Source: Candidatus Moraniibacteriota bacterium (GTDB lineage: Bacteria; Patescibacteriota; Minisyncoccia; Moranbacterales; GCA-2747515). From it: a stretch of 64,000 nucleotides of DNA. Each line of letters starts with the position of its first letter. Within the stretch, counting starts at the first letter, position 1. Under the pieces are notes generated by a model that had not been told where the DNA came from, did no database searches, and saw only the letters and a list, made by a program, of their open reading frames with translations. The stretch covers positions 70,240 through 134,239 of the forward strand of contig CALNYG010000005.1 in the NCBI GenBank assembly GCA_942490825.1, in the 5' to 3' direction. Position numbers and translations under genes: made by a program. Below are positions 20,077 to 35,279 of this stretch, one piece after another.

Positions 20077-23000
20077 TTATAATTCACTTACATAGTACAA
20101 ATTAAAAACACTATCCCTAACAATTAGATCATCACTATTTGTAGTATTCATAACTTCAAGTTTAAAATTATCTCCAGCATTCGCATGTATTGTCATTGGT
20201 AAAGTAAAAGTCTGGAAGTTACTTACTCCTGATGTTGTAGCTCCAATTCTATATCCAACTGGAACTCCCTGAGTAATGTTATAAAGTCTAAGATAAAAAT
20301 CTTCTCCATTTCCACCTGATATTGTGATGGAAACATTTCCTACGTAATGACCAGCATTAATAAATGTCATTACATCATTTGATAAGCCAAATCCATTTGC
20401 TTCTCCTGAAAATAAATCATTTGTTGAATTAGTTAATTGTTCCCAAGTATCAACTGTACAATTAATAGTTTCCAATTTATTTTGAAATCCTCCATAAATA
20501 TAATAAATATTACTTTGTTTAAGTATTCCTCCAGTAATAATTACATCTCCATTTTCATCAATAACCATCCTTTCAACTCCAGCTGTATCAAACCTAATCT
20601 TATCTTCATCTGCACTTTCTTCAACTTGAATTTTAGTATCACCATCTGTATCACTTAAAGATAAGGCTGTGCTTCCAGAAATATCATCCTGCCAAGTCAA
20701 AGCACCAGATCCATCAGTTTTCAAAACCTGATTAGCTGAACCATCAGCTGTTGGAAGAGTATAATTTTTAAAAGAAATTAATCCATCATTTTTTACACTA
20801 AATAAATTAGCATTAGCACTATCATCAACTTTTAACGCATGAGCTGTGTCATCAGCGGTTGCACCTTTAATGTGAGTTTTAGCAGTGATAGAATTTGTTC
20901 CAATTCCTAAACTATCCGTTACATCATCCCAAAAGAAATTTGTATTATCTTCTGTTACTACTGAGCCTGAAGTAAATAAGATTGAACCCGCAGTAAATGA
21001 ACCTAGAGTATCAGTTAATCCTAAGAAAGTAGAAGTACCACCAGCATTATCATCCACATATTTTTTAGTAGCAGGTTCGTAATCTGCGTCAGGAGTAAAG
21101 GCATCAGTATTATCTAATTCAAGCACATTAGTTAAATCAGCTTTCAAATTCAAAGCAGTCTGAACAGCAGAGCTCACAGGTTTATCAGCGTCACTGGTAT
21201 TATCTACGTTTCCTAATCCTACATCAGATGAATCAACAGAATGAGGGTTTGTTGTTGTATCAGCCACATGACTATCCAATTGAGTATGTGTATTACTTCC
21301 AATATCAGTTAAAGAAGTATGTGATTTTGTAGTAAGATCAGCAATATCTGAAGTTGTTTTATCAACCTGTGCCCAAGTATAATCATTTGTTTGAGCAGTT
21401 ATATCTCCAGTTCTAGTAAATACGCTGGTCACTGCACCACTACTAATATTATCATCAACGTATTTTTTATTTGCCACTTGATAATCAGTTGTCGGAGCTG
21501 AACTTGGAGTTATAGAAAAACTTGAAAATGTCTTAACTCCAGCAACTGTCTGGGGATTTGTTAAATCAACAAAGTTTTGAGTTATTGAACCAGTCCCACC
21601 ATTTGCAATGGGTAATATACCAGTAACATCATCGGTTAAATCAATTTGGTTAGCAGTTATTTCTTGTCCTGATAAAGTTAAATAATCTTTTCCCGCTAAA
21701 GTTACAGCGTCATGTAATTGTGTAATATCAGCTTTCAAATTCAAAGCAGTCTGAACAGCAGTGCTCACAGGTTTATCAGCATCACTGGTATTATCAACAT
21801 TTCCCAATCCAACATCAGATGAGTCTACTGAATGAGGGTTTGTTGTAATATTTGCAATATGAGTATCAATAGTAGCATGATCGTTTGTTCCAATATTTTG
21901 AATATTAGCATGATCAATGCTTCCCTCAGTAAAATGAATACTCGAATCTCCAGTGTGAGAAGTTAAATCACCAGAACTCGCACTATTATCACTTATTGTA
22001 AAATCTGGATAAGTTCCTCCTAAAGTTACATTTGTGCCACCAGTAAAAGCTACTGTTTTATCGTAAAGATTAGTTGAGCCTTCCGTTAAGTCATCAGTTG
22101 TTTTAGAAGAAAAATTACTATCAAAGTTAGTAGAAAAATCTGTAATATTCAATTTCAAATTCAAAGCAGTTTGAACAGCTGAACTCACAGGTTTATCAGC
22201 ATCGCTAGTATTATCCACATTTCCTAATCCTACGTCAGATGAATCTACTGAATGTGGATTAGTTGTTGTATCAGCCACATGACTGTCCAATTGAGTATGT
22301 GTATTACTTCCAATATCAGTTAAAGAAGTGTGTGATTTTGTAGTAAGATCAGCAATATCTGAAGTTGTTTTATCAATTTGTGCCCAAGTGTAATCATTTG
22401 TTTGAGCAGTAACTACTCCAGTTCTTCCAAAAACACTAGTTATTGCACCACCAGAACCCACTAATTCATCCAGTGTCTCTAAAGCTTTTTGAACTGTATC
22501 ATCTAAAACACTAAGATTAGTATCAAAATTTGTAGTATCAAGATCTATTGTAGTTCCAGCTTGATTATGACTAGCTGGAGTAAACTCAGTCGGAACATCA
22601 TTTAAATCATTGTAAGATCCAGAAAAAGTTGAATAACCTGCAGTAGAATGATCTCCCCAACCAAAAGCAGTATCCCAATTACTAGCATTAGCTATTGCAG
22701 TTAAATCAGCTTTCAAATTCAAAGCAGTTTGAACAGCTGAACTCACAGGTTTATCAGCGTCACTGGTATTATCTACGTTTCCTAATCCTACGTCAGATGA
22801 ATCTACTGAATGTGGATTAGTTGTTGTATCAGCAACATGACTGTCCAATTGAGTATGTGTATTACTTCCAATATCAGTTAAAGAAGTGTGTGATTTTGTA
22901 GTAAGATCAGCAATATCTGAAGTTGTTTTATCAATTTGTGCCCAAGTGTAATCATTTGTTTGAGCAGTAACTACTCCAGTTCTTCCAAAAACACTAGTTA

Positions 23001-24528
23001 TTGCACCACCAGAACCCACTAATTCATCCAGTGTCTCTAAAGCTTTTTGAACTGTATCATCTAAAACACTAAGATTAGTATCAAAATTTGTAGTATCAAG
23101 ATCTATTGTAGTTCCAGCTTGATTATGACTAGCTGGAGTAAACTCAGTCGGAACATCATTTAAATCATTGTAAGATCCAGAAAAAGTTGAATAACCTGCA
23201 GTAGAATGATCTCCCCAACCAAAAGCAGTATCCCAATTACTAGCATTAGCTATTGCAGTTAGATCAGCTTTCAAATCCAAAGCAGTCTGAACAGCAGAGC
23301 TCACAGGTTTATCAGCGTCACTGGTATTATCTACGTTTCCTAATCCTACATCAGATGAATCAACTGAATGAGGGTTTGTTGTTGTGTCAGCAATATGAGT
23401 ATCAATAGTAGCATGATCATTTGTTCCAATATTTGATAATGCAGTATGATCTGTTACGCCTGCAGAATTATTAGTCCAACTTAAATCTCCTGATCCATCT
23501 GTAGTCAAAATCTGTCCAGAAGCTCCATCAGCACTTGGTAAACTTAGCACATCTAAAAATCCCGTTAAATCACCATGCTGAGAATTTGTTAAGTGATAAT
23601 ATTCGTCTGTTGCTCCGCCTTGAATATTATTTAAATCATTATGATCTGCAGTTCCAGCAGTCAAAGCTGATATATCAACAGTATTTCCAGTGGAAATAGT
23701 AATCTCGCCTGTACTGGAATTAAATGAAAGTGTTTGTGAATCTGTGTTTGTATCAGTATCAACATCAGCAGAACAAACAAAAGCACTTCCATTCCACTGA
23801 AGTTTATCAGTCCCGCTACAAGTCGGAGCATTTATAGAAACTTCTCCACTAGCTTCATTAAGTCCATCGCCTGCTGTAATACTGCTCATTCCACTAATAT
23901 CACCACAAGCCCATTGATCATCACCACCATCCCAATATAAAAAATCCCCATCATTCTCACATTCTAATTCACCTGAGCTATTTACATTTACACTATTATT
24001 ATCTAAGTCTCCAAAAACTGCATGTGTCGGTTTACGGCAATCCCATTCTTTTTCTCCTTCATGCCATTGTAAAATTCTATCATCATCAACACATCGTATT
24101 TGACCATCTTTAACTTTCACTGTTGTAGAATCATAATTAAAAGAAACATCATCAGCATCTTCAATATAAATCGTTTCAGTTATAGTTTTAGTTTCGACTA
24201 CATTTTGATTTTGTTGAGCTGAAGAAGAATTATTAGATGTATTTGATTCAGAAGTCGAATCATTTTTCTCAGTAGCTATTTCTTTATCATTTGAATTTAA
24301 AGAATCACTACCTTCTTCATTCAAAGAATTAGAAACAGAACTAAGAGTATCAGCCTCATCAGATTCATTATAATCGTTATCTTCTTTTCGAAGATTAAAT
24401 ATTATAATACCTCCAATTAACAATACAATGATAATTGCTGAAATCCATTTGGTGCTTGGACTAATTATATTCTCTTGATAGCTTTCTGGAATTTGTTTAG
24501 AAATAGAAGCTTTGTGTTTTGTGGGCAT
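20077..24528 (-). CDS. giant membrane-anchored surface protein with phage-tail-fibre-type repeats
   Basis: 1483 aa. N-terminal TM helix (WISAIIIVLLIGGIIIF) and a Ser/Asn-rich linker. Three copies of C..(D/G)..L.W.G....W.C. Five copies of TNPHSVDSSDVGLGNVDNTSDADKPVS.AVQTAL.LK, a GLGNVDNTSD.DKP motif known from phage tail fibre repeats. The C-terminal segment of about 150 aa is beta-rich. Confidence 0.85.
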   Translation of the reverse strand: MPTKHKASISKQIPESYQENIISPSTKWISAIIIVLLIGGIIIFNLRKEDNDYNESDEADTLSSVSNSLNEEGSDSLNSNDKEIATEKNDSTSESNTSNNSSSAQQNQNVVETKTITETIYIEDADDVSFNYDSTTVKVKDGQIRCVDDDRILQWHEGEKEWDCRKPTHAVFGDLDNNSVNVNSSGELECENDGDFLYWDGGDDQWACGDISGMSSITAGDGLNEASGEVSINAPTCSGTDKLQWNGSAFVCSADVDTDTNTDSQTLSFNSSTGEITISTGNTVDISALTAGTADHNDLNNIQGGATDEYYHLTNSQHGDLTGFLDVLSLPSADGASGQILTTDGSGDLSWTNNSAGVTDHTALSNIGTNDHATIDTHIADTTTNPHSVDSSDVGLGNVDNTSDADKPVSSAVQTALDLKADLTAIANASNWDTAFGWGDHSTAGYSTFSGSYNDLNDVPTEFTPASHNQAGTTIDLDTTNFDTNLSVLDDTVQKALETLDELVGSGGAITSVFGRTGVVTAQTNDYTWAQIDKTTSDIADLTTKSHTSLTDIGSNTHTQLDSHVADTTTNPHSVDSSDVGLGNVDNTSDADKPVSSAVQTALNLKADLTAIANASNWDTAFGWGDHSTAGYSTFSGSYNDLNDVPTEFTPASHNQAGTTIDLDTTNFDTNLSVLDDTVQKALETLDELVGSGGAITSVFGRTGVVTAQTNDYTWAQIDKTTSDIADLTTKSHTSLTDIGSNTHTQLDSHVADTTTNPHSVDSSDVGLGNVDNTSDADKPVSSAVQTALNLKLNITDFSTNFDSNFSSKTTDDLTEGSTNLYDKTVAFTGGTNVTLGGTYPDFTISDNSASSGDLTSHTGDSSIHFTEGSIDHANIQNIGTNDHATIDTHIANITTNPHSVDSSDVGLGNVDNTSDADKPVSTAVQTALNLKADITQLHDAVTLAGKDYLTLSGQEITANQIDLTDDVTGILPIANGGTGSITQNFVDLTNPQTVAGVKTFSSFSITPSSAPTTDYQVANKKYVDDNISSGAVTSVFTRTGDITAQTNDYTWAQVDKTTSDIADLTTKSHTSLTDIGSNTHTQLDSHVADTTTNPHSVDSSDVGLGNVDNTSDADKPVSSAVQTALNLKADLTNVLELDNTDAFTPDADYEPATKKYVDDNAGGTSTFLGLTDTLGSFTAGSILFTSGSVVTEDNTNFFWDDVTDSLGIGTNSITAKTHIKGATADDTAHALKVDDSANANLFSVKNDGLISFKNYTLPTADGSANQVLKTDGSGALTWQDDISGSTALSLSDTDGDTKIQVEESADEDKIRFDTAGVERMVIDENGDVIITGGILKQSNIYYIYGGFQNKLETINCTVDTWEQLTNSTNDLFSGEANGFGLSNDVMTFINAGHYVGNVSITISGGNGEDFYLRLYNITQGVPVGYRIGATTSGVSNFQTFTLPMTIHANAGDNFKLEVMNTTNSDDLIVRDSVFNLYYVSEL
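22155..23270. repeat. 2 x 558-bp near-identical tandem duplication inside the giant gene
   Basis: 22155-22712 and 22713-23270 differ at only a handful of positions, and more than 400 bp are identical by eye. Each unit encodes 186 aa in frame. More diverged partial copies lie at about 21130-21420, 21715-21850 and 23271-23400. Confidence 0.9.
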
Positions 24529-25938: not shown

Positions 25939-28900
25939 ATTTCTTAATCCGCACAACAATCTTCTCCCCATCAACATCCAATTCCTTTTCCAAATCAAAT
26001 TCCTCCAAAGTTCCCTTCTCAAATTTCTCTGCCAAAACCTCTTTTACAATCATTTCACCAAACTTCTCAAAAACTTCCTCACCACCTTGATAACTCACAT
26101 TAATTCTGTCATCAACTTGATAATCTGCATTTTTTCGCATCTGTTGAATATGACGAATAATTTCACGAGCCTGTCCTTCAAGTTTTAATTCAGGAGTAAT
26201 TTCTGTGTCCAAAACAATATCAGTTTCAAGATTCTCATTAAAAATAACTTCTTTAACATTTAATTCTTCCTTGATAATTTCTTGCATCTCTTCGTTAAAA
26301 TCTTTTTTCACAGTAACTTTACTCAATGGCTGACGAACTTTCAATTTATTTTGAGAACGTAATTGTAAACCTTCACTAATCACATCTCGTAAATTTTCAA
26401 CCTGTTCATTCAACTTTTCATCAATTAATTCTTCATTAGTCTCAGGAAACTCAGCTAAGTGTACAGACGAAAAATCTTTCGTCTCTACGCTATTCATCAA
26501 ATTTTTATAAACCTCTTCCGCCATAAAAGGAGTAAACGGTGCCATCACCTTTGAAAGCTCAACCAAAACATAGTGCAAAGTCGCATAGGCATCATTTTTA
26601 TCACCATCATCTTCACTCTTCCAAAAACGCTTTCTTGAACGACGAATGTACCAGTTTGAAAGATTATCAGTAAACTTCGGCAACAATCGAGCTGCTTTGT
26701 GCAGTTCGTAAGCTTCCATATGATTATTAAACTCTCGGATCAAAACTTGTAATTCAGACACAATCCACTTGTCCAATAAATTAGTCTTACCTTCAGCTGA
26801 AAAATTTTTCTCCGCTTCCCACTTATCAATATTCGCATAAAGCACAAAGAAAGAGTAAGAATTCCACAACATTCGCATCATTCCCCGAACCACTTCACTC
26901 ACATCTTTTTCAGAGAAATTCAAATTTTGAGCTGCCACCACCGGAGACGCCATCAAATAATATCGTATTGAATCCGCTCCATATTTTTCAAACATTTCCA
27001 TTGGATTAGGATAGTTTTGCAATTTCTTCGACATTTTCTTTCCATCCTCCGCTAAAACAATTCCGTTAGCAATTACATTTTTAAAAGCAGGCTTTCCTTT
27101 GATCGCTCCGGCAATTGTGTGTAAATAATAAAACCAAGCTCGAGTTTGATCGATTCCTTCGGCAATAAAATCTGCTGGAAAAGTATTTTCAAATTTTTCT
27201 TTATTTTCGAACGGATAATGTTTTTGTGCGTAGGGCATTGAACCAGAATCAAACCAAGTGTCTAAAACATCAGGAATTCGATGCATTTCCCCGCTACATT
27301 TTTCACATGGAAAAACAATTTTATCCACAACATGTTTATGCAAATCATCAATTTTTTCTCCACTGATTTTTTCTAAATCTGCAACATTTCCAAAAACTTT
27401 CATTTCTCCACATTCACATTTCCAAATCGGTATTGCTGACGCCCAAAAACGCTGACGAGAAATTGACCAATCTCGTGCTCCCTCCAACCAATTTCCAAAA
27501 CGCCCTTCTTTCAAATGGGCTGGTGACCAATTTACTTCTTTGGCAGTTTCTAAAAGTTTATCTTTTATTTTTGTTACGGCGATAAACCAAGAAGATGTTG
27601 CGTAATTTATCAACGGAGTGTCACAACGCCAACAATGTGGATAACTATGATCATAACTTTCAGAATTAAAAATTTTCTTTTCTTCTTCTAAATAATTTAC
27701 AATCATCTTATCGGCTTTTCTGATTTGCACAACCCCCTTTTTTTCAGGAAATCGTTCACTGAGATTTAATTTTGCAAACTCTTCAAATTCTTTTTCATTT
27801 TTTAATTCTTCTTTAAAATTTCCATCCATTCCTACATGTTGTACAAAAGGTAAGTTATTTTCTTTTCCTAAATTCATATCGTCTTCACCAAATGCTGGTG
27901 CGATGTGAACTACTCCTGTTCCATCTTCTGTAGTTACAAAATCTGCTCCGTAAACTTTCCAACCGTTTTCTCGATTTTCTAAACTTTCATTTTCTGAATA
28001 AGTATTGAAAAGAGGTTTGTATTTTTTCCCGATTAATTTTTCCCCTTTTAGCTCTTCAATGATTTTATATTCCGCTTCACCAAAAATTTCTTCTAATTTT
28101 GCTTTTGCTAAAATAAATCTTTCGCTAAAATCAATTTTAAAATTTGGCTCATTAGTAACACCTTTTTCAAAGAAATGTCCTTTATTTTCTTCCTTATGTA
28201 AATTTGCATTCAATTTCCCTCCTAGTAAAAGAAAGTGTTCTTCTTTTATAATATTTTCATCTGAATAAATAACATCAACCTTATTGCTTATTTTATTCTT
28301 TATTTTTTCAAAATCCAATTCAAAATCAGTATATCCAGAATTTTTAACCCAATCAGGATTTGTTGATGAAAAAGATTTGCCTGGGTAGGTTGGAGCAATC
28401 ATTGTTAAACTTTCAATTTTAACTTCTTTATTTTCAAGAAATTTTAAAAATGTACTTGATCCTAGGGAATGAACGATAACATGAGAATTATTAAAGTCAT
28501 ATTTTTCCAATAATTCTAAGTTTTCTTTTAAGTTTGGATTACTGTTATTCTTATGATCTATAATTGTGACATTATAACCATTTTTTTCTAATTTTTCTTT
28601 TAATTTTTGAAAATAAGAATCAGAAGCAAAAGCGTGCTTACCGGAAATCAAAAACACATTTTTATACCAGCTCTCTTTCTCAATTTTCACATAATCAATA
28701 TCCTCACCCACAGCCAATGCAACATTTCCCGGAAGAGTCCAAGGAGTAGTCGTCCACGCAAGAATAAAAGTATTCGGTTCATCAACCAATTCAAACTTCG
28801 CCGTTACCGATAAATCCTTAATATCCTGATAACCCTCCGCAACCTCAGACTGCGAAAGAGTCGTCTCACATCGAGGACAAATGTGCATTGAACGGTAACT

Positions 28901-29422
28901 TTCATAAACCAAGCCCTTATCAAAAAGTTCCTTAAAAACCCACCAAACAGATTCCATAAAATCCTTATCCATCGTTCGATAGGCATTTTCCATATCTGCC
29001 CAACGTCCCAAACGCTCGATCGCCTTTTCCCAATCATCAACATATCCCAAAACCTTACTTCTACACAACTCATTAAACTTATCCACACCCAATGCCTCAA
29101 TATCTTTCTTTTTCTGCGATCCCATTTCCTTTTCCACAATATTCTCAATCGGCAAACCGTGACAATCCCAACCCCACTTTCGCTCCACGTAAAAACCACG
29201 CATCGTCCAATATCGTGGCACAACGTCTTTCATAATACTTCCCACAAGATGCCCATAATGTGGCAACCCAGTCGCAAAAGGAGGTCCATCATAAAATGTA
29301 TATTCCTTCGCATCTTTTCGATTATCCAAAGATTTCTGAAAAGTTTTGTTTTCCTTCCAAAATTCAATTATTTCTTTTTCCATTTCAGGAAACTTTTGTC
29401 GTGATTCTACTTTTTTAAACAT
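25937..29422 (-). CDS. ileS: isoleucine--tRNA ligase (type 2) carrying an inserted serine-hydrolase-like domain
   Basis: 1161 aa. HIGH-type PHYGHLVG, KMSKKL, editing-domain motifs TTPWTLPGN and GTGVVHIAPAFGEDD, and HSYPHCWRCDTPLI are all present. In addition, an extra segment of about 180 aa (aa about 250-430) lies between DYVKIE and KYKPLF. Confidence 0.96.
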   Translation of the reverse strand: MFKKVESRQKFPEMEKEIIEFWKENKTFQKSLDNRKDAKEYTFYDGPPFATGLPHYGHLVGSIMKDVVPRYWTMRGFYVERKWGWDCHGLPIENIVEKEMGSQKKKDIEALGVDKFNELCRSKVLGYVDDWEKAIERLGRWADMENAYRTMDKDFMESVWWVFKELFDKGLVYESYRSMHICPRCETTLSQSEVAEGYQDIKDLSVTAKFELVDEPNTFILAWTTTPWTLPGNVALAVGEDIDYVKIEKESWYKNVFLISGKHAFASDSYFQKLKEKLEKNGYNVTIIDHKNNSNPNLKENLELLEKYDFNNSHVIVHSLGSSTFLKFLENKEVKIESLTMIAPTYPGKSFSSTNPDWVKNSGYTDFELDFEKIKNKISNKVDVIYSDENIIKEEHFLLLGGKLNANLHKEENKGHFFEKGVTNEPNFKIDFSERFILAKAKLEEIFGEAEYKIIEELKGEKLIGKKYKPLFNTYSENESLENRENGWKVYGADFVTTEDGTGVVHIAPAFGEDDMNLGKENNLPFVQHVGMDGNFKEELKNEKEFEEFAKLNLSERFPEKKGVVQIRKADKMIVNYLEEEKKIFNSESYDHSYPHCWRCDTPLINYATSSWFIAVTKIKDKLLETAKEVNWSPAHLKEGRFGNWLEGARDWSISRQRFWASAIPIWKCECGEMKVFGNVADLEKISGEKIDDLHKHVVDKIVFPCEKCSGEMHRIPDVLDTWFDSGSMPYAQKHYPFENKEKFENTFPADFIAEGIDQTRAWFYYLHTIAGAIKGKPAFKNVIANGIVLAEDGKKMSKKLQNYPNPMEMFEKYGADSIRYYLMASPVVAAQNLNFSEKDVSEVVRGMMRMLWNSYSFFVLYANIDKWEAEKNFSAEGKTNLLDKWIVSELQVLIREFNNHMEAYELHKAARLLPKFTDNLSNWYIRRSRKRFWKSEDDGDKNDAYATLHYVLVELSKVMAPFTPFMAEEVYKNLMNSVETKDFSSVHLAEFPETNEELIDEKLNEQVENLRDVISEGLQLRSQNKLKVRQPLSKVTVKKDFNEEMQEIIKEELNVKEVIFNENLETDIVLDTEITPELKLEGQAREIIRHIQQMRKNADYQVDDRINVSYQGGEEVFEKFGEMIVKEVLAEKFEKGTLEEFDLEKELDVDGEKIVVRIKK

Positions 29423-29452: not shown

Positions 29453-29866
29453 TTAAATTGTTTCTAAAAAATCTTCTATTGTTTTATACCTTTCTTCAAA
29501 AATCAAATATAATGTGTCTGGTTTTTCTGGTTCTCCGATAAGAATAAGTTTTTTACCCAATCCATATGCAATTCCAGCTTCAATATGTACTGAATTTCCA
29601 GCTGGCAATAATACAATAATTTTTTCAGCATTTTTCAATCCATCTAAATCTTCTTTAAAAAGTTTCTGAAAATGTTCATTGTTGTAAAAATCTTTTACAC
29701 TCTCAAGTACTTTCATTTGATCTTCTGGATTACCCTCAGGATTAGAAGAGTCTGCAGGATTATCAAAAAAATTGTAACAACTTTTACCTTTTTCTTCTAG
29801 TTTTTCAATAAGTTGATCTACATTTTCTTTATTTCTAAATTTCGCTAAAACTGTATATTCTGTCAT
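29453..29866 (-). CDS. nucleoside 2-deoxyribosyltransferase-like (Rossmann-like) protein
   Basis: 137 aa. KIIVLLPAGNSVHIEAGIAYGLGKKLILIG resembles the D/E-x-G-T-x-x-E-x-G-Y-A-x-G-K motif region of the NDT-like superfamily. The assignment is tentative. Confidence 0.4.
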   Translation of the reverse strand: MTEYTVLAKFRNKENVDQLIEKLEEKGKSCYNFFDNPADSSNPEGNPEDQMKVLESVKDFYNNEHFQKLFKEDLDGLKNAEKIIVLLPAGNSVHIEAGIAYGLGKKLILIGEPEKPDTLYLIFEERYKTIEDFLETI

Positions 29867-29870
29867 ACTT

Positions 29871-30494
29871 TTAAATTATTTTATTATTATTTTTAAATTC
29901 TAAATTTTCTTCATCAAATGACCATTTTAATGGATTCTCATAAATATATTGTTGTATCTTATTTAAAGATTTTTCATTTCTGATTATATGATCATAATAT
30001 CTGGGTTGCCATTTAAAATTGATTTGTTTTTGTGATTTGTTGATTTCAAATGAACATCTACCTTTAAACCAACGAATCATTGTTGCTAAATTTTCATGCA
30101 ACATTGGATTATGTTGTTTTGTAACACCGCCCATTTTTGTTGTACAAACGCGATTTATCGCGTTTCTTGTATTATCATCAACGGTATCATTGAAACGCGA
30201 TAAATCGGCGTTTCTACAATTTTTAATTCCAATAATTCCATGAATATGATTTGGCATAATTATAAATTCATCTAATTCTACATTATCAAAATGTTGTGGT
30301 ATTTCCAACCAAAATTTTTTTGCCTTTTTTCCAGTTTCATTTAAAGCTGTTTTTTCATTTTCGACTTTACCAAAAAAATATTGTTTGTCTTTTGTGCAGA
30401 CGGTTACGAAATAAAATCCATCATTGGAATAATCCCAATTTTGCAAACGATGTGATCCGATGCGGTATTTATTTTTGAATTTGGGTTGTTGCAT
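29871..30494 (-). CDS. REP-associated tyrosine transposase-like Y1 (HUH) transposase
   Basis: 207 aa. YRIGSHRLQNWDYSNDGFYFVTVCT is followed by the HUH motif MPNHIHGII and the C-terminal Tyr motif WQPRYYDHIIRN, matching the IS200-like/RAYT family. The ORF contains two copies of the REP palindrome AAACGCGAT..ATCGCGTTTC (30142-30169, 30192-30217). Confidence 0.82.
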   Translation of the reverse strand: MQQPKFKNKYRIGSHRLQNWDYSNDGFYFVTVCTKDKQYFFGKVENEKTALNETGKKAKKFWLEIPQHFDNVELDEFIIMPNHIHGIIGIKNCRNADLSRFNDTVDDNTRNAINRVCTTKMGGVTKQHNPMLHENLATMIRWFKGRCSFEINKSQKQINFKWQPRYYDHIIRNEKSLNKIQQYIYENPLKWSFDEENLEFKNNNKII

Positions 30495-30507
30495 AAATTA
30501 TTTATTT

Positions 30508-30532
30508 GAAACGCGATGAATCGCGTTTCTAC
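30508..30532 (-). repeat. REP hairpin flanking the RAYT gene
   Basis: The minus strand reads GTAGAAACGCGATTCATCGCGTTTC, 13 nt upstream of the RAYT ATG. The same palindrome occurs at 38967-38992 and twice inside the RAYT ORF. Confidence 0.75.
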
Positions 30533-30548
30533 GCATTGATTATTTTTT

Positions 30549-30745
30549 AAAAACAAAAAATCCCCAAACAAATAAATGTTTAAGGACGATTAAACGCGGT
30601 GCCACCTTAATTCGTTAAAAAATAACGCTCTCAATTTTAGTGATTTACGGACACTTACCGACAAGGTCTACTTAGCTAATGCTTTTCTGCTTGTATCCCC
30701 TGTTTTTCAACAGATCCAATGGTGATAGCCACTGTCAAAGGATTT
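30549..30745 (-). promoter_or_regulatory. T-box riboswitch leader (candidate Ile specifier)
   Basis: The minus strand at 30595-30612 reads AATTAAGGTGGCACCGCG, the T-box sequence. The antiterminator AAGG[UGGCACC]GCG...CGUCCUU is mutually exclusive with a terminator stem (30561-30570 pairing with 30577-30586) followed by U6. Upstream lie AGAAA and AGUAG Stem-I-like motifs, GCGUUA (F-box-like) and a candidate specifier AUC followed by A (30641-30644). Confidence 0.8.
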
Positions 30746-30873
30746 TATAATTGTACTCTATTTATACTATTTTTTTGGGTTAAACGCAAATTTTTGTAAC
30801 TTACAAACAAAATTAATAAACTCAAAATTTTATGAAATATGTTAAATAAACTTAAAAATGCCTAAATTTATAA

Positions 30874-31371
30874 TTAAGTAAATATTTTATTAAAAAATAC
30901 AAAAAGTGACATAAATATGGGGAGCAATAAAAATGTAATGAAAACTACTATTTTCGAAAGAATGTACATTATTACTATTGGTGACCTACCTAAAAAAATA
31001 GCTGTTTTTTCTTCAAATATTTTTTTACTTTTTGTTTTTGTATACAATCCCCAAGCAATCAATATACTAATTAGAATTAGATAGCCAAAAATAAATTCAA
31101 ATAACATAAATGAACAATCCCTACCAGATGCTTCACATATATTTATCAATGACATAGGAAACGACAAAAAAGTAAAGATAGCTCCAAAAATATAATGAGC
31201 ATATCTAGACATATTGCTTTTATCAAAAGTAATTCTCAATAAAAATATAATATAAAACCAACCTAAAATAATAACTAAAAAGGAGTTACTTTTCGCAATA
31301 AAAAATACTGTAAGAAACCATAGTATGAAATAGAGTATATACCTTATCCACTTCTTGAAATCACTAGACAT
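30874..31371 (-). CDS. hypothetical polytopic membrane protein
   Basis: 165 aa with about five hydrophobic helices. No family recognised. Confidence 0.5.
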   Translation of the reverse strand: MSSDFKKWIRYILYFILWFLTVFFIAKSNSFLVIILGWFYIIFLLRITFDKSNMSRYAHYIFGAIFTFLSFPMSLINICEASGRDCSFMLFEFIFGYLILISILIAWGLYTKTKSKKIFEEKTAIFLGRSPIVIMYILSKIVVFITFLLLPIFMSLFVFFNKIFT

Positions 31372-32728: not shown

Positions 32729-33490
32729 ATGTCAAAAATAATAAAAGTAGTTATTTTGGTTTTCGTTTTAATATTAATCTCTTTTTTGTTCGTGAGTTGT
32801 ACGATGTCTTCTGAAAAAGATTTGGATGAGCAACAAGAAGTAAAAGAACTTAATGAGATTGATAAGAATGTGACATTGCAAGACTCTTCAGAAAGTGAAG
32901 TAGAAGTTATTAAAAGTGTTAACAAAACAGCCAAATATAAAATAGAATTTATTGCGGAGTGGAGTGAAAAAACTCACCCTGACAATTATCCAAAAAACGC
33001 ACATTTTTCTCCTTTTGTGGCGTATTCACATAATGGATCTGTTGAAGCAAAGATTTTTTCGGAAGGTAAATTGGCGACGGCTGGTGTTGAGGACATGGCG
33101 GAAACTGGTGCGACTGGAACTTTAGTTAAAGAAATTAAAAGTTTAATAAATTCTAAATTAGTTTATCAACAAACAAAAGGTAAGGTTTTTGATTCACCTG
33201 GAGGTGATATTTCTGAATTGAGTTTTTCTCAGGAGTATAGTAATTTTTTGTTTGTGAGTATGTTGGCACCGAGTCCTGATTGGTTTGTGAGTGGTTCAAC
33301 TGATTTGTTTGAAGATGGTGACTGGGTGGAAAGGGCTGAAATTGATTTGGTTACTTTTGATGCGGGGACGGATGATGGAGTTGAACTTACTTCACGTGAT
33401 AAAGATTCTAAACCAAAGCAACCTATTGTTGTTTTTGGGGATGAGTTGCAGGGTTTGGGGAGAGTTGTTTTGAGTAGGATTGATAAATAA
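32729..33490 (+). CDS. Spondin_N-domain lipoprotein
   Basis: 253 aa. Lipobox LFVSC. YKIEFIAEWSEKTHP..YP.NAHFSPFV...H and MLAPSPDWFVSG...L..DG.W match the spondin N-terminal domain pattern. Confidence 0.75.
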   Translation: MSKIIKVVILVFVLILISFLFVSCTMSSEKDLDEQQEVKELNEIDKNVTLQDSSESEVEVIKSVNKTAKYKIEFIAEWSEKTHPDNYPKNAHFSPFVAYSHNGSVEAKIFSEGKLATAGVEDMAETGATGTLVKEIKSLINSKLVYQQTKGKVFDSPGGDISELSFSQEYSNFLFVSMLAPSPDWFVSGSTDLFEDGDWVERAEIDLVTFDAGTDDGVELTSRDKDSKPKQPIVVFGDELQGLGRVVLSRIDK

Positions 33491-33608: not shown

Positions 33609-35279
33609 TTAACTATTTATTCTCCAATAAGCGGATGGTGATCTTTGTTTACCATCAAAATAAATTTTTTCTTCATCTCTTAACAAATTTAATAAGTTTT
33701 GAATTTTTTTGCTACTCAATTTTCCTTCAAATAAACCATCTCTGAAATCACCCATCCTGCCTTTTTTATGTTGTTCAAAAAAGTTCCAAAGAACTTTTTT
33801 TTGTTGATCTTTAGCAAGCCACTTCTTTCTTGTATACTCACTATTTTCTCCAGTAAAATTGTAAAATTTACTACTAAGTAAATATTTTGTTCCACGTCCT
33901 ATTCCAATCTTTTCTAATATTCCTAATTTTAAAAATTTATCTTTTCTTTTAGTGTCTGCAGAAAATTGTTTTTCTCTTATTTCGTCTAAAAAAATAAGAT
34001 CTTTAACAAAGTCAAATTCGACTTGTTTTTCTTTTGAAATTCTTTCTAAAAAAATAACAAAATTTTCATCTTTGATTTGAGTAGGGATTGTAAGTTTTAC
34101 AAAATTTGTTGTAGTTTCTTCAATGAGAGGTCTTCCTTTTCCTTCTAAAATAGCTTTATTAAAAATTCTATCTAATCCATGTCCATATCTCTCAACAAGT
34201 CCAATTTTTCCAAGTGTTTCCATAAGCAAGCGATTTCTCCATTTTCCTACAGCATCAAGTATATTTTTAGAAGATACTCCTGACAAAAATTTTCCTGGAC
34301 TTTTTATAATAAATTTTTGAAGTGTTGCTTCAATAAATATAGAGCCTCTTTCTTCATAGTCTCTATGCGCAAACGCATTTAATATTGCTTCACGAATACT
34401 TTCTTTATCAAATGCCCAAACATCCCCCTCAAAAAAACCTTCTTTAAAAGGAGTTCTTGTATTTCGTACATTAATAGTTTCCCAAATCTCATCAATCATT
34501 AATAAAAAAGCAGTTCTCCAATCTTTTGAAAAATCAAAATCAAGTTTATTAAAATCATTTTTCCAACCAAATCGAATTTCTGCTTCAGGAATAAACTCAG
34601 CTATTTTTTCACTTTTTCCACAAAGTAAAATTGCTGCAAAAGTAATTTCATTTGATTTTTTAAGAAGTAATTTATCAAGCATTTCTTCATAAGAAAAACT
34701 TAAATATTTCTCATCATTTTCCTTTTCTGCCCATTTTTCTTTTAAAATACTTAATGCATTTTTATCCAAATCTTGGAAAGTGGCATTTTCACAAATTTGT
34801 GAAGAAAAGTCATAATTTTCCTTTTTCAATAAAATATTTCTTTGTCTTTCAGGATAGGCAGAAAGGAGTTGATTATGAGAATCTTTTCTAATATAAGGTA
34901 CTTTTTCAAAAAGGATAGGACTATTTCCACAATTTTTTATTTGCACAACAAAAATTCTTTTATCTTCTACAATAAATTCATATTCATTCCAATGACATTG
35001 TTTATTAAGTTTTTCATTTAACCAAATATTTCCCGTTCCGCCTTTTGGCTTTAATTTTTGTAAAGAAAATTCTGTTCCAATGATTCTCCATGTTTTATCT
35101 TCAATACCCCAGATAAAATATGCGAACTCTTCATTTTCATAACTTGCGGAATTAGCAAGAGCAGAAAATGTTTTTCCAATCTTGTCTGGATCCGCTAAAG
35201 AATTTTTTATTTCAATCCAAGAAATTTCATTTTCAGCACGAACTTTTTTTATTAAACTTTCTAATAATTCTTTAGTCAT
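33609..35279 (-). CDS. AlbA_2 (Schlafen-like) + HATPase_c_4 + winged-helix protein
   Basis: 556 aa. The N-terminus has EISWIEIKNSL..PDKIGKTFSALANS....FAYFIWGIED (AlbA_2-like). The middle has IREAILNAFAHRDYEERGSIFIEA....IIKSPG (HATPase_c_4-like). Proteins of this type are often annotated as RecG-like or as transcriptional regulators. Confidence 0.72.
   Translation of the reverse strand: MTKELLESLIKKVRAENEISWIEIKNSLADPDKIGKTFSALANSASYENEEFAYFIWGIEDKTWRIIGTEFSLQKLKPKGGTGNIWLNEKLNKQCHWNEYEFIVEDKRIFVVQIKNCGNSPILFEKVPYIRKDSHNQLLSAYPERQRNILLKKENYDFSSQICENATFQDLDKNALSILKEKWAEKENDEKYLSFSYEEMLDKLLLKKSNEITFAAILLCGKSEKIAEFIPEAEIRFGWKNDFNKLDFDFSKDWRTAFLLMIDEIWETINVRNTRTPFKEGFFEGDVWAFDKESIREAILNAFAHRDYEERGSIFIEATLQKFIIKSPGKFLSGVSSKNILDAVGKWRNRLLMETLGKIGLVERYGHGLDRIFNKAILEGKGRPLIEETTTNFVKLTIPTQIKDENFVIFLERISKEKQVEFDFVKDLIFLDEIREKQFSADTKRKDKFLKLGILEKIGIGRGTKYLLSSKFYNFTGENSEYTRKKWLAKDQQKKVLWNFFEQHKKGRMGDFRDGLFEGKLSSKKIQNLLNLLRDEEKIYFDGKQRSPSAYWRINS

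Follow-up and report, generated by a model that had tools for sequence, protein, structure and literature searches.

An isoleucyl-tRNA synthetase with a second enzyme fold in its editing domain

The window analyzed here is a 64,000-nucleotide stretch of a Candidatus Moraniibacteriota genome (contig CALNYG010000005.1, positions 70,240 to 134,239), and the gene of interest within it is ileS, which encodes a type-2 isoleucyl-tRNA synthetase (IleRS) whose editing domain, connective peptide 1 (CP1), houses an additional hydrolase domain. Host and insert are spanned by a single unbroken open reading frame (ORF). The protein scores 939.2 bits against the TIGR00392 ileS model (cut-off 621.4), in two stretches separated by a gap from about residue 247 to about residue 433, and Pfam recognizes PF00133 (tRNA-synt_1), Anticodon_1, and DUF5915. 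Its best matches in the Protein Data Bank (PDB) are type-2 and eukaryotic IleRS, the closest being the type-2 enzyme 8C8U (E 1.7e-234), while the nearest named IleRS belong to Candidatus Moranbacteria.

The synthetic and editing signatures of the host were compared in an alignment of 69 IleRS, insert-bearing and insert-free together (alignment A2; Table 1). In the second CP1 editing motif, the invariant residues are G501, G503, V505, H506, A508-G512, D514, and D515. A preliminary description of the locus, made from the sequence alone, had stated that the editing motifs on either side of the insert are intact and that the reading frame is continuous, and both statements hold. The insert is an addition to the canonical CP1 editing site and does not replace it.

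Table 1 Features of ileS and its inserted domain, in window coordinates
Feature	Residues	Position	Strand	Basis
ileS, type-2 (eukaryote-like) isoleucyl-tRNA synthetase, host of the insert	1161 aa	25937..29422	-	Continuous ORF, TIGR00392, Pfam, 8C8U
HIGH-type signature HYGH	55-58	29249..29260	-	H55, G57, and H58 invariant in A2
KMSKS-type signature KMSKK	796-800	27023..27037	-	Sequence and coordinates
CP1 threonine-rich editing motif WTTTPWT, intact	223-229	28736..28756	-	W223-T229 invariant in A2
CP1 editing motif GTGxVHxAPxxGxDD, intact	501-515	27878..27922	-	Invariant columns in A2
Inserted segment, relative to solved and related IleRS	250-435	28118..28675	-	Break in 8C8U alignment, CP1 anchor spacing, insert-free relatives
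Folded YdeN/RBBP9-like alpha/beta serine hydrolase core	252-432	28127..28669	-	Profile A1, AlphaFold2, Foldseek
Host element SERFILAKAKLEEIFG, strand and helix		28079..28126	-	Site A insert precedes the element; in site B relatives the insert follows it
Ser319, nucleophile, V-H-S-L-G elbow, codon TCC	319	28466..28468	-	Aligns with RBBP9 Ser75 and YdeN HSLG
Asp388, adjoining Glu389	388	28259..28261	-	Column variable
Glu389, inferred catalytic acid	389	28256..28258	-	Aligns with RBBP9 Asp138 and the second Asp of YdeN KDDQIVP
His416, catalytic base, N-K-G-H-F-F	416	28175..28177	-	Aligns with RBBP9 His165

When the protein is aligned with 8C8U, residues 3-249 pair with residues 2-248 of the solved enzyme and residues 436-1134 with its residues 253-927. 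The intervening segment of about 186 residues stands in CP1 in place of a beta-hairpin turn that is four residues long in the solved type-2 enzymes (8C8U and Thermus thermophilus 1ILE). The spacing from TTPWTLP to GTGVVHIAP is 276 residues here, as against 90-172 in 109 and 243-288 in ten others of the top 120 IleRS matches to the window protein. The preliminary limits of the insert (28133-28675, residues 250-430) were essentially right and are refined to those in Table 1. The junctions read EKES/WYKNVF and NFKIDF/SERF, and the guanine-plus-cytosine (GC) content of the insert is 0.252, compared with 0.359 in the remainder of the gene, a low value that agrees with neighboring genes. A full-length AlphaFold2 model keeps both folds at moderate overall confidence (mean predicted local distance difference test score, pLDDT, 76; predicted template modeling score, pTM, 0.68), and in it the host element that directly follows the insert forms a strand (residues 434-439) and a helix (residues 440-447).

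Exactly at the C-terminal junction lies a 17-nt tandem direct repeat, CTTTTGCTAAAATAAAT / CTTTCGCTAAAATCAAT (window 28102-28135, 15 of 17 positions identical). The repeat is out of frame: the copy that encodes IDFSER reads LILAK in another frame, like the FILAK motif of the host. An insertion footprint is conceivable, but we judge the repeat to be chance in AT-rich DNA, because the same junction is conserved at the protein level in relatives that are just 50% identical. A search of the junctions for a mobile-element footprint gave nothing beyond short AT-rich repeats.

The insert is a compact YdeN/RBBP9-family serine hydrolase

To identify the inserted segment, we aligned it with eleven homologous sequences that are inserted in related IleRS (alignment A1, 12 sequences in all). 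The resulting profile matches YdeN from Bacillus subtilis (PDB 1UXO) with an E-value of 1.8e-16, positions 2-170 of 179 aligning to residues 4-171 of 192, and RBBP9 weakly. AlphaFold2 modeled the same alignment with confidence (pLDDT 92.1, pTM 0.91), and strands and helices alternate in the model as in an alpha/beta hydrolase, bearing out the earlier suggestion that the segment is a discrete domain. In a Foldseek search of the PDB, YdeN (1uxo) ranked first with a TM-score of 0.79 and RBBP9 chains followed at 0.73-0.76; the top seven matches were YdeN and RBBP9 only, and larger, lidded alpha/beta hydrolases came well behind.

Single-sequence Pfam searches were less decisive. The preliminary description had proposed PF06821 (Ser_hydrolase), and this family is indeed the one matched, but the score stays below its cut-off of 22 bits, at 18.6 bits (1.8e-3) for the excised insert and 14.2 bits for the full protein, whereas the profile of 12 inserts succeeds. 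Other sub-threshold matches, to Abhydrolase_5 (2e-4) and Abhydrolase_1 (3.7e-4), are mutually consistent. Among the homologues, P0125 passes at 22.4 bits and P0016 reaches 20.4 bits, and the profile also retrieves hundreds of proteins of about 190 residues that belong to PF06821. The identity of the domain is settled, despite the sub-threshold Pfam scores, by the family profile together with the fold search and the conserved triad. The segment is a discrete, autonomous, and compact (about 180 residues) alpha/beta serine hydrolase of the YdeN/RBBP9 family that has no lid domain, which confirms the preliminary claim of a hydrolase-like domain in CP1 of a type-2 IleRS. An hmmsearch of the six-frame ORFs found no second copy or free-standing paralogue in the window.

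With YdeN the insert shares the compact alpha/beta-hydrolase fold (root-mean-square deviation 2.4 Å over 171 columns, 25% identity), and the two align at the H-S-L-G elbow, at the acid that follows strand 7, and at the histidine of G-H-F. YdeN differs in being free-standing, of unknown substrate, and in having a C-terminal helix that the insert lacks, a connector returning the chain to the host instead. Human RBBP9 (PDB 2QS9, 7OEX, and 9FCR) has the same fold (TM-score 0.74), its Ser75, Asp138, and His165 corresponding to Ser319, Glu389, and His416, and both proteins have an S-G-Y motif in a loop that lines the pocket. It is, however, a free-standing eukaryotic protein of only 16-17% identity to the insert, and the acid of the insert is Glu, whereas most family members have Asp.

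The catalytic residues are conserved across lineages

The preliminary description read a complete Ser-Asp-His triad in the insert. All the motifs it quoted are present, and the serine, including its codon, and the histidine stand; the aspartate it took for the acid, Asp388, does not. In a set of 46 full domains that covers all lineages, the serine is found in 46, an acid (Asp or Glu) in 46, and the histidine in 45, while the column before the acid, occupied here by Asp388, varies among D, N, T, and E. Because the acid column always holds Asp or Glu, the preceding column is variable, and RBBP9 Asp138 aligns with it, we assign the role of catalytic acid to Glu389 and not to Asp388. The glycine of the oxyanion loop and that of the nucleophile elbow are invariant.

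Several further residues are invariant only within the subfamily that comprises the nested domains. These are Lys262 after strand 1, His290 in a D-H-x-N loop, and the Gly363-Tyr364 pair (K11, H39, G112, and Y113 in domain numbering), which generic YdeN-like proteins do not have. The subfamily also conserves a C-terminal N-x-P-[ND]-F connector in place of the last helix of YdeN.

On the strength of these residues, the inserted domain is probably catalytically active. Many domains added to synthetases are non-catalytic, and the insert could in principle be a structural, tRNA-binding, or regulatory appendage with a vestigial triad, as one Nanosynbacter homologue with a tyrosine for the triad histidine might suggest. 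We consider this very unlikely, given that the triad is kept between lineages in which insert identity is only 43-60% and that the oxyanion-loop and elbow glycines never vary. The homologue in question is the IleRS insert of a Candidatus Nanosynbacter sp. (L026), which reads GKGYFF at the histidine; a Saccharibacteria insert (L023) has a tyrosine for the histidine that precedes the nucleophile (TYSLG). These changes are either sequencing errors or cases of occasional inactivation.

The domain occupies three CP1 loops in Patescibacteria

Ten other full-length IleRS among the top 120 matches bear the same domain. When one genome per GTDB species was scanned with the domain profile, 31 loci emerged, every one inside an IleRS ORF, from Pacebacteria, Parcubacteria, Dojkabacteria, Saccharimonas, Microsaccharimonas, Nanosynbacter, and about two dozen other Saccharibacteria. 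Three insertion sites are used. At site A, the hairpin turn before the FILAKxxLExxFG element, the domain is found in the window, in Pacebacteria, and in Saccharibacteria, and at site B, the loop after this element, in a Parcubacteria/Moranbacteria clade. Site C, the hairpin preceding LAWTTTPWT, is used in a Dojkabacteria IleRS with an additional NUDIX domain close to site A.

Searched exhaustively with the profile, a set of 1.84 billion representatives yielded 710 matches, including a single free-standing member of the IleRS-nested subfamily, the 196-residue protein P0126 (E 4e-53; L001 272-862). Its gene is a true ORF of its own, located on a metagenome contig of 966 bp and starting one base past the stop of a gyrB-like gene. 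The protein keeps a P-P-E-F-D-I connector typical of nested copies, which hints at excision from a synthetase and not at an ancestral form. Word-indexed searches with the excised domain recovered just proteins of 137-196 residues and missed the long IleRS hosts, so that a ratio of nested to free-standing copies is not obtainable from them.

In all, more than 45 independent assemblies, drawn from several phylum-level lineages, have the same domain in the same in-frame architecture. Together with the E-value of the profile match to YdeN, this recurrence puts the observation far outside what chance would produce. The recurrence also bears on whether the segment is an artefact or a selfish element, that is, an assembly chimera, or an intein or intron-like insertion eliminated before the protein functions, as its patchy distribution and its GC content below that of the rest of the gene might be taken to indicate. 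An assembly chimera was rejected on the number of independent occurrences. An intein or intron was likewise rejected, as the junctions contain no His-Asn and the fold is that of an alpha/beta hydrolase and not Hint; the low GC content, moreover, is shared with neighboring genes. Conservation at the amino acid level, with the catalytic residues kept, argues that the insert is translated. The artefact or selfish reading is effectively refuted.

Gain, loss, and relocation of the module

We next compared trees of the host core and of the domain, both of them crude neighbor-joining trees without support values. In the host-core tree, insert-bearing IleRS appear in three separate places, and the window IleRS groups within the insert-free relatives P0004, P0005, and P0006 (core identity 89, 86, and 82%, respectively). 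The insert is thus absent from the closest relatives, yet present in many Patescibacteria IleRS. The P0004 contig and the window are syntenic, with a G5/DPBB protein, ileS, RecO, a DUF11 protein, and TGT, and its ileS is about 90% identical in nucleotide sequence to that of the window, bar the insert region and one other patch.

The domains themselves are differently related. The window insert is 51-60% identical to inserts of Moranbacteria-type hosts whose flanks are 78-82% identical, and 49-54% identical to Saccharibacteria inserts whose flanks are only about 50% identical. In the domain tree, all nested domains and P0126 form one clade well apart from generic YdeN-like proteins, and the window domain, from site A, clusters with site B domains. 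The existence of close IleRS relatives without the module, its use of three CP1 loops, and its one free-standing member indicate that the module is accessory. We conclude that it is dispensable and has been gained, lost, or moved repeatedly; in the lineage of the window, a recent gain would be the most parsimonious history. P0004 has a 54-residue segment at the same site, which we considered as a decayed hydrolase and rejected, its local alignment score being 23 against a shuffled mean of 24.8.

The other divergent patch of the gene also lies in CP1 (window 27656-27817, minus strand, residues 536-589). It is unique to this IleRS, reads FKEELKNEKEFEEFAKLNLSERFPEKKGVVQIRKADKM..., and stands in place of an AGLNVKP...TD.EIIK segment that is conserved in all relatives, other insert-bearing ones included. 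Nucleotide identity to P0004 and P0005 falls to about 0.5 across it, with flanks at about 0.9, which suggests a mosaic or recombined editing domain.

Related guests in other class Ia synthetases

Nested PF06821 domains are not limited to IleRS. About 21 of the 30 multidomain PF06821 matches that we scanned are leucyl- (LeuRS), valyl- (ValRS), or isoleucyl-tRNA synthetases or further class Ia synthetases, with the domain in or beside CP1. The LeuRS cases are P0137-P0139, P0190, P0209, P0210, P0219, P0224, P0230, P0237, P0248, and P0255, and the ValRS cases P0220 and P0268; a NUDIX, Ham1, or HAD domain or a second Ser_hydrolase is often found in the same LeuRS or ValRS. The G-H-S-x-G serine and the histidine are retained in nearly all multidomain matches. 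Multidomain PF06821 proteins other than the LeuRS and ValRS cases include the UvrB P0263 as well as P0261, P0193, P0188, and P0212.

Among IleRS, guest domains were noted in P0016, P0072, P0061, P0120, P0123, and P0125, as well as in P0083 and in the L021 ORF (residues about 270-370). Among these Patescibacteria IleRS, a histidine phosphatase domain (His_Phos_1) is inserted after CP1, at about position 267 of the tRNA-synt_1 profile, or a NUDIX domain inside CP1. Two guests can share one enzyme: P0016 has the hydrolase and His_Phos_1, and L021 a site C hydrolase and NUDIX.

Proposed function of the nested hydrolase

The reading that we favor, tentatively, is that the domain may be a tethered alpha-aminoacyl-ester hydrolase acting on products of synthetase chemistry. 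This preference rests on the alpha-aminoacyl chemistry of RBBP9 and on the skew of the nested domains toward Ile, Leu, and Val synthetases and toward CP1. Valacyclovir is the valyl ester of a nucleoside analogue and as such is chemically close to the Val-A76 ester, the target of IleRS editing. Activation of valacyclovir has been reported for RBBP9 (Shenoy et al. 2020, as cited in PMC7730578). The enzyme cleaves hydrophobic or aromatic residues from N termini, depends on a free alpha-amine, and has been trapped as acyl-enzymes with Leu/Ile, Met, Phe, Tyr, and Trp (PMC8866121). The preliminary description had speculated about an added proofreading activity, an idea to which this chemistry and the recurrence of the domain in IleRS, LeuRS, and ValRS lend indirect support.

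By analogy with RBBP9, the only characterized relative, the target of the insert's serine would be the carbonyl of an alpha-aminoacyl ester or amide with a free amine, and the putative aminoacyl-serine intermediate would be released by water activated by the His/Glu pair. Given the tethering to CP1, likely substrates would be aminoacyl species from the Ile, Leu, and Val synthetases, with a misacylated tRNA 3′ end and released aminoacyl-adenylates or aminoacyl esters as candidates. The domain would then offer a clearance site tethered in cis alongside the canonical CP1 pocket. That it is a serine-nucleophile site for proofreading or clearance, repeatedly acquired in cis by Patescibacteria IleRS, LeuRS, and ValRS and handling substrates that CP1 does not, we regard as unlikely; such a site might remove the amino acid from a class of mischarged tRNA or break down non-cognate aminoacyl-adenylates or esters once released.

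Several observations weigh against a role tied to aminoacylation. The glutamate that anchors the amine in RBBP9, Glu108, aligns to Val359 of the insert in a column that is not conserved, which weakens a simple RBBP9 analogy. At a pTM of just 0.68, the full-length model is a limited guide to where Ser319 stands with respect to the CP1 pocket or the path of the tRNA CCA end. PF06821 domains are found in other contexts too, one lying between the helicase lobes of a UvrB (P0263) and others being fused to adenylate kinase, GNAT, NUDIX, or Ham1; unrelated guests (NUDIX, His_Phos_1, HAD, and Ham1) are nested in the same synthetases; and the near-identical, syntenic IleRS relatives are without the insert.

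The last three of these points, together with the free-standing P0126 between gyrB and a following gene, are what would be expected of a passenger enzyme, an active general esterase or house-cleaning hydrolase unrelated to isoleucylation. The class Ia synthetases of the Candidate Phyla Radiation (CPR) would, on this account, be large, essential, and steadily expressed hosts with permissive loops, in which small enzymes are nested and co-expressed; the presence of unrelated guests fits such generic permissiveness as well as it fits coupling. A passenger is the main rival reading and a realistic possibility, if the less likely of the two. Set against it are the skew of multidomain contexts toward the three editing class Ia synthetases, the position always in or adjoining CP1, and the use by one tight subfamily of three loops in the same part of IleRS CP1, about 60 residues long. 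Furthermore, alpha-aminoacyl substrates are the only known chemistry of the family.

The preliminary description had speculated that the domain could cleave ester-containing IleRS inhibitors such as mupirocin, a form of self-protection at the target. An esterase-type fold on an antibiotic target is circumstantial evidence of this kind, and the host scores highly against the NCBIfam MupA and MupB models (769 and 774 bits), though far under their cut-offs of 1900, and is not a member of either. Mupirocin binds the synthetic site of IleRS (complexes 1FFY and 1QU2), away from the insert in CP1. The same hydrolase family is nested in LeuRS, ValRS, and UvrB, none of which is a mupirocin target, and the closest relatives do without the insert. 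Self-protection therefore seems very unlikely.

Relation to known systems and significance

Extra enzyme domains on IleRS are not unprecedented, as the NCBIfam family NF040702 (ileS_w_GNAT) provides a precedent for an additional catalytic domain. The window protein is not a member of it, at 341 bits against a cut-off of 1999, and the GNAT guest has a different fold. Editing by aminoacyl-tRNA synthetases is thought to rely on a small and well-catalogued set of hydrolytic domains. If the aminoacyl-ester reading is right, the insert would share with AlaX, YbaK/ProXp, DTD, and class Ia CP1 the hydrolysis of aminoacyl esters outside the synthetic site, and would differ from them in fold and in chemistry, with a putative covalent serine intermediate in place of substrate- or water-assisted hydrolysis. 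To our knowledge, no AlaX, YbaK/ProXp, DTD, or CP1 editing domain is an alpha/beta hydrolase.

Neither component family is new, and the sequences, which are public, are annotated, if at all, as isoleucine--tRNA ligase. In the searchable literature, we came across no account of hydrolase domains nested within CPR synthetases. In a general survey of domain insertions, the LeuRS editing domain figures solely as an insert, with 213 insertion events and none as host (PMC13114784). The IleRS-nested subfamily lies below the Pfam threshold, which is probably why it was overlooked.

The arrangement would come as a surprise to specialists and is widespread and directly testable, and the insert occurs in human-associated Saccharibacteria, some of them co-culturable, which makes it experimentally approachable. 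Were the domain to act on aminoacyl species, it would extend translational quality control by a new fold and by a mechanism of covalent catalysis, and if it serves in proofreading, it would amount to a trans-editing-type factor of unprecedented fold built into an editing domain. Otherwise, it is a striking case of enzyme-in-enzyme nesting in ultra-small genomes, with one module in three loops of one domain, of value for domain-insertion evolution and for the engineering of permissive synthetase sites. It would also offer a first strong functional lead for the uncharacterized bacterial YdeN family.

Genomic neighborhood of ileS

Compared with the P0004 contig (L034), the window has three extra genes directly upstream of ileS (29453-31371, minus strand): a 137-residue ORF without a Pfam match, a 207-residue relative of IS200-like Y1 transposases, and a 165-residue ORF, also without a Pfam match, that reads as a hydrophobic membrane protein. 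A 1483-residue ORF between recO and the DUF11 gene (20077-24528, minus strand) is likewise extra relative to L034, and the ileS neighborhood appears to be insertion-prone. Farther along, and unrelated to the insert, the window encodes a 253-residue protein with a Spondin_N match (32729-33490, plus strand; E 5e-34) and a 556-residue protein with Schlafen AlbA_2 and HATPase_c_4 domains (33609-35279, minus strand).

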